Assembly: GCA_963823555.1 (NCBI GenBank)
Contig: CAWGMA010000004.1
Location: 352,001-416,000 of the forward strand
DNA length: 64,000 nucleotides
Source of the DNA: Candidatus Eiseniibacteriota bacterium
Lineage (GTDB): Bacteria > Eisenbacteria > RBG-16-71-46 > CAVPCR01
Reading direction: 5' to 3'
Position 1 is the stretch's first letter. Every line of letters begins with the position of its first letter. Positions 29,613 to 41,363 of this stretch are shown here, piece by piece. The position numbers and the translations under genes are program-made. The notes beneath the pieces were generated by a model. It was not told where the DNA came from. It was given only the letters and a program-made list of their open reading frames with translations, and did not search any database.

Positions 29613-30974
29613 ATGTCGAACTACGTGTCGTCCCTGATGGCGGAGGTCAAGGCCAAGAATCCGGCGGAACCCGAGTTCCATCAGGCCGTTCAGGAGGTCG
29701 CCGAATCGCTCGCGCTCGTTCTCGACCGCCATCCCGAGTATCGCCGCGGGAAGATCCTCGAGCGGATCATCGAGCCCGAGCGGGTGCTCATGTTCCGGGT
29801 GCCCTGGGTGGACGACCAGGGCGAGGTGAGGGTGAACCGCGGGTTCCGCATCGAGATGAACACGGCGATCGGCCCCTACAAGGGCGGCCTCCGCTTCCAC
29901 GCCTCGGTCAACCTCGGCATCTTGAAGTTCCTGGCCTTCGAGCAGGTCTTCAAGAACTCGCTCACCACGCTGCCCATGGGGGGTGGCAAGGGTGGCTCCG
30001 ATTTCGATCCGAAGGGCAAGAGCGACAACGAGGTGATGCGGTTCTGCCAGAGCTTCATGACGGAACTCCATCGCCACATCGGCCCGGACACCGACGTGCC
30101 GGCCGGCGATATCGGAGTCGGCGCACGTGAGATCGGATTCCTCTTCGGGCAGTACAAGCGCTTGAAGAACGAGTTCACCGGGGTTCTCACCGGTAAGGGC
30201 CTCAACTGGGGCGGCTCGCTCATCCGGCCCGAGGCGACCGGCTACGGCGCCGTCTACTTCGCCGCCGAGATGCTGGCGACGCGGAAGGAGACGCTCGAGG
30301 GCAAGATCTGTCTGGTCTCCGGCAGCGGCAACGTGGCCCAGTACACGGTCGAGAAGCTGCTCGAGCTCGGCGCCAAGCCGGTGACGCTCTCCGATTCGAG
30401 CGGCTACATCTACGACGAGGCGGGGATCACCAAGGACAAGCTCGCCTTCCTGATGGAGCTCAAGAACATCCGCCGCGGGCGCATCAAGGAATACGCTGAC
30501 AAGTTCAAGGGCGCGGTCTACACCCCGCTCGATGCCAAGCTCGACCACAACCCGCTGTGGAACCACAAGGCCCATTGCGCCTTCCCGAGCGCGACCCAGA
30601 ACGAGGTCAACGCCAAGGACGCCGCCAATCTGCTCAAGAACGGCGTCTACGTCATCTCCGAAGGGGCCAACATGCCGACGACCATCGAGGGCGTGAATCA
30701 GTTCATCGACGCCAAGATCCTCTATGGCCCGGGCAAGGCCGCCAATGCGGGCGGCGTGGCCACCTCTGGTCTGGAGATGGCACAGAACTCGATGCGCATG
30801 AGCTGGACGCGGGAGGAAGTGGACAAGAAGCTCCAGCACATCATGAAGAGCATCCACAAGGCCTGCTGGGACACGGCCGAGCGTTTCAACACGCCGGGCA
30901 ACTACGTGAACGGTGCCAACATCGCCGGCTTCATCAAGGTCGCCGACGCGATGATGGATCAGGGAGTCGTATAG
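29613..30974 (+). CDS. gdhA: NADP-specific-type glutamate dehydrogenase
   Basis: [76 protein letters not shown]. Confidence 0.97.
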
Positions 30975-31158
30975 GACGCGCCAGCCGTTGCGCTGGGGCG
31001 GGGTTCGGCCCGCCTTCAAGATGCTCGTCGGCGGGGTCGCGAGCCGGTAGAATGCGGCGCGGGAGGGCAAACGCCCATCCCGCGCCGTTCGCTTTCCCTC
31101 TCCCCGCGGACGCTGGGGCAGGGAGCGCGACCACCCGGGGTCGACCCTTGAGTGTGCG

Positions 31159-40058: not shown

Positions 40059-40072
40059 CGCGGCCGGACCGT

Positions 40073-41363
40073 CTAGATCCAGCCGCGGTCCTTGCAGGCC
40101 TGGGCGACACGGCCGATGGCGATGACGTAGGCGGCGTCGCGCATGAAGATCTTCTGCTTCCTGGCCACTTCACTGAACGGCGAGGAAGGCCGAGGTCATC
40201 TTGACGTCGAGCTCGACCCAGGACCTCGTCCTTCTCCCAGAAGTAGTTCATGTTGCTCTGCACCTGCTCGAAGTAGCTGCAGGTAACCCCTCCGGCATTG
40301 GCGAGGAAGTCGGGGATCAGGAAGATGCCCCGCTCCTGGATCACGCGGTCGGCATCGGGGGTGGTGGGACCGTTGGCGCCCTCGGCGATGAGCTTCACTT
40401 TGGGGCCGATGCGGTCGACGTTCTCGCTCGTGATCTGGTTCTCGAGGGCAGCCGGGATCAGGATATCGACATCCTGGGCGATCCAATCGTCGCCCGGCAG
40501 CACCTCGTAGCCCAGTGCGGCGGCCTTGGTCTTGTCGATGCCGCCGAAGCGGTCGCGTGATGCCGAGGAGCTGGTCGAGGTCGATGCCATCCTTGCGGGT
40601 GAACGAGTAGGACGTCTGGTCCTGCTGATCCCAGCAGGAGACGCAGGTCACCTTGCCGCCGATCTGCTCGTAGAGGCGTATCGCATACTGGGCCACGTTC
40701 CCGAAGCCCTGGACGCTGGCCCGCGTCGCGGCGGGGGCGATGCCGAGCTCCTTGAGCGCCTCGCGGATCGTGAAGACGACTCCGAATCCGGTCGCCTCGG
40801 CGCGTCCCAGCGAGCCGCCCATCCCCACCGGTTTCCCGGTGATGACGCCGGGATAGCGCCCGCGATGGATCGCACTCGTACTCATCGAGCATCCACAGCA
40901 TGTGCTGGGCGGATGTCATGACATCTGGCGCCGGCACGTCGATGACGGGGCCGATATCGCGCGAAATCTGCCGCACCCAGCCCCGGCAGATGAACTCCTG
41001 CTCATGGGCGCTCAGGTGATGCGGATCGCACACCACGCCGCCCTTGCTGCCGCCGAGCGGAATGTCGACAACGGCACACTTCCAGGTCATCCACATGGCC
41101 AGGGCGCGTACGGTGTCGATGGTCTCCTGCGGGTGGAAGCGCACGCCGCCCTTGCCGGGGCCGCGGGCGTCGTTGTGCTGGACGCGGAAGCCGCGGAACA
41201 CGTGCACGTTGCCGTCGTCCATGCGGACCGGGATGGAGAACGCATACTCCCGCATGGGAACACGCAGGAGTTCCCGCGAGGAGGCGTCGAGACCGATGGT
41301 CTCCGCCACCTTGTCGAACTGCGCCTGGGCAACCTGGAATGAGTTGTAAGCTTTCTCTCTCAC
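40073..41363 (-). CDS. Glu/Leu/Phe/Val dehydrogenase (second GDH); frameshifted in this assembly
   Basis: GGAGG RBS and GTG at 41363; [66 protein letters not shown]; ends RGWI then TAG at 40073. Confidence 0.9.

Follow-up and report, generated by a model that had tools for sequence, protein, structure and literature searches.

What are proteins labelled as pyruvate, water dikinases doing between two genes for glutamate dehydrogenase (GDH)? The question is raised by a 64,000-nucleotide stretch of DNA from Candidatus Eiseniibacteriota bacterium (contig CAWGMA010000004.1 of assembly GCA_963823555.1, positions 352,001 to 416,000; below, the window), in which the genes gdh1 and gdh2 enclose genes for three dikinase-like proteins, here called A, B and C, and for a metallophosphoesterase (PE). 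The three proteins belong to a real, widespread and undescribed GDH-linked system, of a kind that has only just been described, that of dikinase-derived regulatory kinases. Our tentative proposal is that they are sensor-gated writers derived from dikinases, which would autophosphorylate a histidine, dock on a partner GDH and pass the phosphoryl group to it, switching its activity.

The company of gdh genes

Are the kinase genes and the gdh genes neighbours by chance? The question was put to 41 genomes of the same class, our own genome included, of which 26 carry the family of A, B and C. Five fragments of one gene in a second genome of the same genus, G001, were merged (bringing 63 family matches to 59), and one duplicate GDH fragment was dropped (106 to 105). 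A match to the GDH N-terminal domain lies within 5 kb of 52 of the 59 family matches and within 10 kb of 53; among the rest, three have no GDH on their contig and three lie 10-37 kb away. Seen from the other side, a family member stands less than 10 kb from 40 of the 105 GDH matches. The chance expectation for a 10-kb span is about 1% per gene, a rough value computed for genomes of Bacteroidales size, and the linkage far exceeds it. Related genomes are not independent of one another, and such counts are not statistical tests.

The same company is kept more widely. In the best 80 of 614 GTDB loci, drawn from many phyla, 65 hold GDH and 22 hold PE; no other real neighbour family is found in more than 11. 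Adjacency to gdh across the family, which the first-pass annotation, made from the sequence alone, had named as a check on its idea of a switch, is thus borne out in the class and cross-phylum sets and is looser in the Bacteroidales. There the family is found in 56 of 61 genomes, and Parabacteroides distasonis and Phocaeicola massiliensis each have an A-type gene between two gdh genes. A Bacteroidaceae-like set comprised 20 high-scoring loci of 65 close matches, the query's own species and several short contigs being skipped; gdh is in view at 16 of the 20, and the end of the A-type gene lies less than 100 nucleotides from the end of a convergent gdh at two and 4-5 kb away at four more. From 3 of 64 parts of the stored GTDB stretches, we estimate that some 15,000 stretches match the family's motifs.

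Might the family replace control of glutamine synthetase and glutamate synthase? Glutamate synthase is present in 6 of the 26 class genomes with the family and in 5 of the 15 without it, so that there is no association, and we reject this candidate. The genome under study, which is 92.5% complete, has no strong match to glutamate synthase and only a partial match to glutamine synthetase; GDH may therefore be its main route of ammonia assimilation.

A dikinase core that ends before the barrel

Protein A begins with a pseudo-receiver (residues ~27-165) devoid of the phospho-accepting aspartate, and continues with a second receiver (174-326), a helical linker, an ATP-grasp domain (419-807) and a histidine domain of swivel fold (820-990). 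The second receiver matches the receiver fold (Z 15.6, root-mean-square deviation (rmsd) 2.1, 128 residues aligned), and its catalytic positions E181, D182, D251, S/T285 and K304 are kept in 54-55 of 55 A-type proteins. Protein B consists of a GAF domain (10-144), a helical region, an ATP-grasp domain (306-713), a histidine domain (His837) and a Pol-beta-type nucleotidyltransferase (NTase, ~940-1055). Its GAF domain is recognized by fold (Z 12.9, rmsd 2.2, 123 aligned), the GAF domains of NifA and PtsP appearing at Z 11.5 and 11.0, matches which do not indicate the ligand. The first-pass annotation had spoken of receiver-like domains in A and a GAF-like domain in B, and both descriptions hold, one receiver of A being a pseudo-receiver and the other intact. 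Protein C is a bare ATP-grasp and histidine domain (His538), with neither a sensor nor an acceptor domain.

What is the last part of the shared core? AlphaFold models of A and B (mean predicted local distance difference test score, pLDDT, 84.0 and 83.5) were compared with solved structures. Residues 418-990 of A align with phosphoenolpyruvate (PEP) synthase 2OLS over 4-467 (Z 25.8, rmsd 4.6, 367 aligned), with rifampin phosphotransferase (RPH) 5HV3 over 7-866 (Z 25.7, rmsd 5.6, 383 aligned) and with pyruvate phosphate dikinase (PPDK) 1DIK over 7-511 (Z 18.7, rmsd 5.0, 351 aligned). Protein B is 28% identical to A, and its residues 307-918 align with 13-467 of 2OLS (Z 23.9, rmsd 4.9, 362 aligned). 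Matches confined to the nucleotide domain extend over 230-284 residues, the best being 5HV1 (Z 25.9, rmsd 2.7, 284 aligned). As the alignments of A and B reach beyond the lengths seen for the nucleotide domain alone, the final 170 residues of the core most probably form a phospho-histidine swivel domain. In both models a helix begins at the histidine of the motif SxG[ST]HFF. Across a diverse set of A-type proteins, chosen regardless of that motif, K441, R532, E779, E781, Q800 and H923 of A are invariant in all 55 of 55; the histidine is also invariant in 73 of 73 aligned C-terminal domains, a set picked by the motif itself. Pfam gives no match to the swivel domain family PF00391 in the histidine domain of A, B or C, and the ESM Atlas returned only clusters that are unnamed or called 'putative PEP synthase'.

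The known PEP synthases continue into a pyruvate/PEP-binding barrel. No Pfam match to such a barrel (the PEP-utilizer C-terminal domain) was found in A, B or C: A and C end with the histidine domain, B runs on into the NTase, and by the fold alignment the chain stops where the barrel would begin. With no barrel, any phosphoryl acceptor would have to be supplied in trans. Against the NCBIfam models for PEP synthase and PPDK the three proteins score 13-65 bits, the cut-offs being 456-1700, although the databases label the family 'pyruvate, water dikinase'. Five canonical PF00391 matches lie elsewhere in the genome, which thus does not need A, B or C as PEP synthases.

Fusions of C to B are frequent: 18 of 74 long C homologues are 1617-1655 amino acids long, 9 of 120 B homologues are about 1620-1655, and all seven of the fusions that were scanned have two PPDK_N domains. 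One homologue of 1576 amino acids, P0400, combines the family core with a receiver and with precomputed matches to PF13676, PF00931 and PF25000, presumably TIR and NB-ARC domains; it is a single sequence and could be a chimera.

Which kinase goes with which dehydrogenase?

The two GDHs of the locus are of different kinds. GDH1 scores 756 bits against the NCBIfam model for NADP-specific GDH (NF006929, cut-off 536) and has the catalytic residues K90, K114, K126 and D166; gdh2 belongs to a distinct clade. For 36 of 39 family-I GDHs the nearest family protein is of A type. For 28 of 32 GDHs in the gdh2 clade it is C or B, and for the remaining four it is a receiver-bearing protein placed with C by the tree. 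The idea that each GDH has a PPDK_N partner of its own, drawn at first from this one locus, is therefore upheld in a wider sample, A going with family-I GDH and C/B, often fused, with family-II GDH. In a FastTree phylogeny of 115 cores the B proteins form one clade, the C proteins form another that sits within receiver-bearing proteins, and the A proteins fall into several; the partner type changes six times. Such a pattern appears close to one ancient split, and is not proof of co-evolution.

Does a kinase core bind its GDH? The first-pass annotation had suggested co-folding each protein with each GDH, and one pair was run, residues 416-990 of A with 30-453 of GDH1, each as an alignment, beside three controls. 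The pair scored 0.59 (runs of 0.59, 0.62 and 0.55) against 0.00 for the best control; at least 66% of contacts were common to the runs, and the partner pLDDT was 89 or more. The mark is reached by 116 of 157 solved complexes and by 2 of 215 mismatches; since scores of 0.60 or less are seen in only 18 of the 157 and in both of the passing mismatches, the pass is a weak one, and it hints at docking of the A core on GDH1. That the A core scores with GDH1 when stripped of its sensors fits the make-up of C, which is core only. We know of no solved complex between a dikinase core and GDH.

The nucleotidyltransferase and the phosphoesterase

In the NTase of B, which exceeds the Pfam cut-off for NTP_transf_2 and matches MntA weakly (E 7.5e-5), G969, S970, D981 and D1026 are kept in 28 of 28 sequences and D983 in 26 of 28. 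Calcineurin-like metallophosphoesterases carry the motifs DxH, GDxxD, GNH[DE], H and GHxH. PE exceeds the Pfam cut-off for Metallophos, keeps D10, H12, D38 and N85 in 21 of 21 sequences and H239 and H241 in 20 of 21, and has the non-canonical GDLLP and GNDD in place of GDxxD and GNH. Neither PE nor the NTase has a close solved relative.

With which of its neighbours does PE belong? In the window the gene overlaps that of A, and one might expect the two to work together. The wider samples point elsewhere. The class sample has 13 close PE orthologues, each of them no more than about 0.75 kb from a match to the B core, and only two abut A; none of nine A-only genomes has a close PE orthologue. 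Among the 80 loci, PE occurs in 21 of the 30 with an NTase and in one of the 50 without, so that 21 of the 22 PE loci hold an NTase, the lone exception lying near a contig end. At locus L029 the kinase part of B is gone, and a stand-alone NTase gene of 125 amino acids (2415-2792) remains between C and PE, converging on PE. Because PE is coupled to the NTase across loci, the overlap of A with PE in the window reflects a local joining of the modules gdh1-A and gdh2-C-B-PE. As 21 of the 22 PE loci hold the NTase and the nine A-only genomes are without a close PE orthologue, the mark that PE would erase is more probably a nucleotidyl group than a phosphate placed by a dikinase.

Locus L029, where a stand-alone NTase is coupled to C and converges on PE, can be regarded as a minimal system. 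At loci L154 and L156 a further divergent paralogue, 25-26% identical to the core of A, and then a receiver-like match stand upstream of PE.

A proposal and its competitors

From the anatomy, the conserved catalytic residues, the gdh linkage and the pairing of A with gdh1 and of C/B with gdh2, all of which are observed, we infer the following chemical steps. In PEP synthase and PPDK the beta-phosphate of ATP is transferred to a histidine, with release of AMP and inorganic phosphate. By the same chemistry, the ATP-grasp domain of each protein would phosphorylate its own invariant histidine (H923 of A, H837 of B, H538 of C). The phospho-histidine core would then dock on the cognate GDH and hand the phosphoryl group to it, the reaction being gated in A by its receivers and in B by its GAF domain, which would respond to carbon and nitrogen signals. 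C and B, since they are often fused, may act as one complex. In a second layer, by analogy with GlnE and GlnD, the NTase of B would attach a nucleoside monophosphate to GDH2, C or B, all of them proteins of the gdh2 module, and PE would take it off. Besides the three histidines, the key residues of this scheme are D251 of A, D981 and D983 of B, and D10 and H12 of PE. The scheme refines an earlier one, in which the dikinase and NTase were to write, and the phosphoesterase to erase, a signal-dependent modification of GDH or of a related metabolite. Conserved gdh linkage, a separate type of partner for each type of GDH, intact catalytic residues, the missing pyruvate-binding domain, sensor domains and the weak co-fold favour that idea; its pairing of the phosphoesterase with dikinase A has given way to a pairing with the NTase.

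We hold the scheme with somewhat less than even confidence, and several findings weigh against it. Fifteen of the 80 loci lack GDH, five of them with full 10-kb flanks. In the Bacteroidales, where many assemblies are fragmented, only 31 of 83 matches (in 23 of 56 genomes) lie within 10 kb of GDH. By precomputed Pfam, a weak test, none of 74 long homologues is fused to GDH. The identity of the swivel domain rests on two predicted models compared by aligned ranges and not by residue-level superposition; when 371 C-terminal pieces were compared with 25 PF00391 pieces by HHalign, the probability was 0.1 (in a run without a positive control), and a 73-sequence profile of the C-terminal domain matched no swivel protein in the PDB. 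The intact receiver 2 of A offers an alternative acceptor for the phosphoryl group. Four of the 32 gdh2-clade GDHs, against none of 39 family-I GDHs, have lost one catalytic lysine and yet keep the cassette, which sits poorly with a simple activity switch. Finally, for VadK (Rv1127c) of Mycobacterium tuberculosis, a PPDK that has no pyruvate-binding domain and phosphorylates itself on His422, the available passages describe autophosphorylation and binding and do not describe transfer to the partner enzymes (PMC13400623).

VadK suggests the first competitor. Might the phospho-histidine state merely control non-covalent binding to the GDH hexamer, altering its activity or assembly, so that GDH is never phosphorylated? 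Such a binding switch is the working model for VadK in the available passages of its description, and VadK is the one studied barrel-less dikinase regulator that we found (PMC13400623). The co-fold, the gdh linkage and the absence of an acceptor domain fit it as well as they fit covalent marking. By itself, however, it leaves the NTase and PE, with their conserved metal ligands, unexplained, and it gives no account of why two paralogous cores should be fused in C-B. We regard it as unlikely, though the likeliest of the competitors. Taken jointly, covalent marking and VadK-like binding make control of GDH at the protein level, by one means or the other, on balance probable.

One might also turn the relationship around. 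GDH, and above all GDH2, would then be a sensor of glutamate, 2-oxoglutarate or NAD(P) that controls the kinase, and the phospho-histidine would pass its phosphate to a receiver aspartate (D251 of A, or that of a separate receiver), with the output elsewhere. A relay of this sort would account for the conservation of receiver 2 in A, for the separate receiver-like matches in loci L154-L156, for the loss of the catalytic lysine in some gdh2-clade GDHs and in none of family I, and for the absence of a histidine kinase from the common neighbours at the 80 loci. A receiver is missing, however, from the C and B clades, which still keep the histidine; 28 of the 32 gdh2 copies retain all the catalytic residues tested, and no DNA-binding output protein is found among the frequent neighbours in the 80 loci. 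The relay ranks below the binding switch in our estimation, and we think it quite unlikely.

Lower still, and improbable in our view, is a small-molecule pathway, in which the dikinase would act on glutamate, glutamine, 2-oxoglutarate or a GDH-bound intermediate, GDH would be the partner that binds the substrate, the NTase would make a nucleotide-activated product and PE would cleave it. There is a precedent in the phosphoramidate synthesis of Campylobacter, where a dikinase, a nucleotidyltransferase and a hydrolase (Cj1418, Cj1416 and Cj1417) act on glutamine, and the closest solved relatives by fold, RPH, PEP synthase and HpeI, are all small-molecule dikinases. Set against this, C has no substrate-binding domain of its own, unlike RPH, the swappable receiver and GAF sensors point to regulation, the 80 loci hold no conserved genes of a downstream pathway, and the A-only genomes have no close PE orthologue. 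That the database label is right, and that these are PEP synthases or PPDKs of gluconeogenesis, is scarcely credible: the PPDK_N domain and the source label itself are outweighed by the missing pyruvate-binding barrel, the low scores against the models and the five canonical PF00391 matches elsewhere in the genome.

The locus in detail

The features of the locus are collected in the table below. The gene order and junctions given by the first-pass annotation stand, gdh1, A and PE converging on B, C and gdh2: the end of A overlaps the start of PE in GTGA, the stop codons of PE and B share CTAG at 34997-35000, and the ATG of C lies 14 nucleotides past the TAG (40075-40073) of gdh2. Three features had been missed, namely the frame breaks in gdh2, the C-terminal histidine domain of A, B and C, and a fourth copy of the family. 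Promoter and terminator scans gave results at the level of chance.

Features of the gdh1-gdh2 locus, in coordinates of the window
Feature	Position	Strand	Remarks
2-oxoacid:ferredoxin oxidoreductase genes (delta, alpha, beta, gamma)	25807..29001	-	divergent from gdh1; several frame-broken
gdh1	29613..30974	+	family-I hexameric GDH, NADP-specific type; partner of A
protein A	31159..34140	+	993 amino acids; Pfam Response_reg and PPDK_N
codon of A His923 (SQGTHFFQN)	33925..33927	+	predicted phospho-histidine, a role suggested by fold
phosphoesterase PE	34137..35000	+	287 amino acids; calcineurin-like metallophosphoesterase; candidate eraser of the NTase mark
protein B	34997..38197	-	1066 amino acids; Pfam PPDK_N and NTP_transf_2
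protein C	38244..40058	-	604 amino acids; Pfam PPDK_N only
gdh2	40073..41363	-	family-II GDH from a separate clade that pairs with C/B; frame broken at four points

Are the breaks in gdh2 real? The gene is read in five pieces, with breaks near 40873, 40555, 40214 and 40175. Genome G001 has the identical six-gene order, with breaks of its own in gdh2 and C. Contigs from public runs are short pieces of relatives, none of them spanning gdh2; some differ by one base near two of the breaks, at 40216 in four of four runs and at 40555 in one. Since each piece of gdh2 is 82-92% identical to an intact relative, the oxidoreductase genes are frame-broken as well, and G001 has its own breaks, the breaks are likely to be indel errors of assembly. 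The gdh2-clade genes that have lost one catalytic lysine are in loci L036, L046, L048 and L058, where C/B are kept, and three of these four loci also hold an intact family-I gdh.

The fourth copy of the family lies on another contig, C1 (2141654-2148278). It is frameshifted and has a B-like core with no match to a GAF or NTase domain, and it stands 4.4 kb downstream of a third GDH-like gene, itself frame-broken.

Of the surrounding genes, the 2-oxoacid:ferredoxin oxidoreductase could consume 2-oxoglutarate made by GDH; across the 80 loci it does not often accompany the family. A GAPDH gene (41762-42775, minus strand) lies upstream of gdh2 on the same strand, 398 nucleotides away. Farther off, a 1218-amino acid Clp/AAA+ protein (20614-24270, minus strand; AAA_2 and ClpB_D2-small) is fused to a C-terminal PCRF domain (peptide-chain-release-factor; E 7.5e-13). 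A subtilase with a FlgD-Ig tail (43489-46620, plus strand) and a BNR/PKD/FG-GAP protein with a secretion-system C-terminal sorting domain (3314-7441, plus strand) are ordinary secreted proteins.

Relation to known systems

Our literature search, which left most subscription and pre-2000 papers outside, found no description of a GDH-linked A/B/C family, and there is no mention of it in the passages and the one supplementary file of PMC5552732 that were searched. What the present analysis adds is the fold evidence for a swivel domain in two paralogues, the coupling of NTase to PE, with a case of a stand-alone NTase, and the weak co-fold pass. GDH stands at the junction of carbon and nitrogen metabolism, and the literature searched held no dedicated covalent switch of a bacterial GDH comparable to GlnE/GlnD; covalent marking of GDH, if true, would be categorically new. 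There is also a practical side, as the PEP synthase mislabel puts a false gluconeogenic reaction into metabolic models. The most far-reaching version of our proposal is that a new class of sensor-gated protein kinases transfers the beta-phosphate of ATP to GDH by way of a swivelling histidine. With a coupled layer of nucleotidylation and de-nucleotidylation it would be for GDH what the GlnE/GlnD cascade is for glutamine synthetase, would occur in most Bacteroidales and in many other phyla, and would supply the missing trans-acting factor for the GdhA of Bacteroides. So much taken together is doubtful.

How far do the likenesses go? GlnE and GlnD nucleotidylate glutamine synthetase and PII; in systems of this type a nucleoside monophosphate is joined covalently to a tyrosine of the target, and a cognate activity takes it off. 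These enzymes and the MntA-type NTases resemble B in having a Pol-beta-type NTase, with GS...DxD...D, tied to a hydrolase and to an enzyme of nitrogen assimilation. Unlike GlnE/GlnD, the candidate eraser here is a separate calcineurin-like protein and the NTase is fused to a dikinase core, and the target would be one suggested by gene company. PEP synthase (2OLS) and PPDK (1DIK) resemble the family, by fold, in that a histidine swivel domain comes after the ATP-grasp domain and is docked in the same place; they have a pyruvate/PEP barrel, whereas the family ends before the barrel, is 14-17% identical and carries N-terminal sensors. RPH (5HV1, 5HV3) and HpeI (9GOJ), the best fold matches to the nucleotide domain, are barrel-less dikinases with an acceptor other than pyruvate. 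RPH has a substrate domain of its own between the ATP and histidine domains, and such a domain is absent from A and C: a short linker is all that separates the nucleotide and histidine domains of A, and the layout of C is the same.

The nearest likeness in regulation is VadK, which co-precipitates with methylcitrate-cycle enzymes encoded nearby and tunes their flux with transcription unchanged, according to the available passages (PMC13400623). Both VadK and the family have an ATP-grasp and a histidine domain without a pyruvate-binding domain and are encoded near a metabolic enzyme as partner, VadK binding its enzymes. In those passages VadK is linked to the methylcitrate cycle and no fused sensor is described, whereas the family is linked to GDH, has receiver, GAF and NTase domains, and has a histidine domain that PF00391 does not recognize. 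VadK is there described as evolved from PPDK; the family is closer by fold to RPH and PEP synthase (Z 25.7-25.9) than to PPDK (Z at most 18.7). The PPDK model scores E 0.0075 or worse against the family proteins. By these comparisons the family looks separately derived from VadK.

A last comparison concerns Bacteroides thetaiotaomicron, whose GdhA activity is affected by one or more trans-acting genes downstream of gdhA, according to the title of a 1996 paper by Baggio and Morrison (PMID 8955404) as cited in PMC4539542. The likeness to A comes through the A-type genes downstream of gdh in Bacteroidaceae-like genomes. A segment of about 3 kb was reportedly needed for activity in Escherichia coli, with transcription unchanged, and A-type genes are about 3 kb in size. 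Reversible inactivation of GDH in Bacteroides fragilis is also said to have been reported in the 1980s. The trans-acting gene of 1996 may be an A-type gene, and the family is a concrete candidate to explain that observation.

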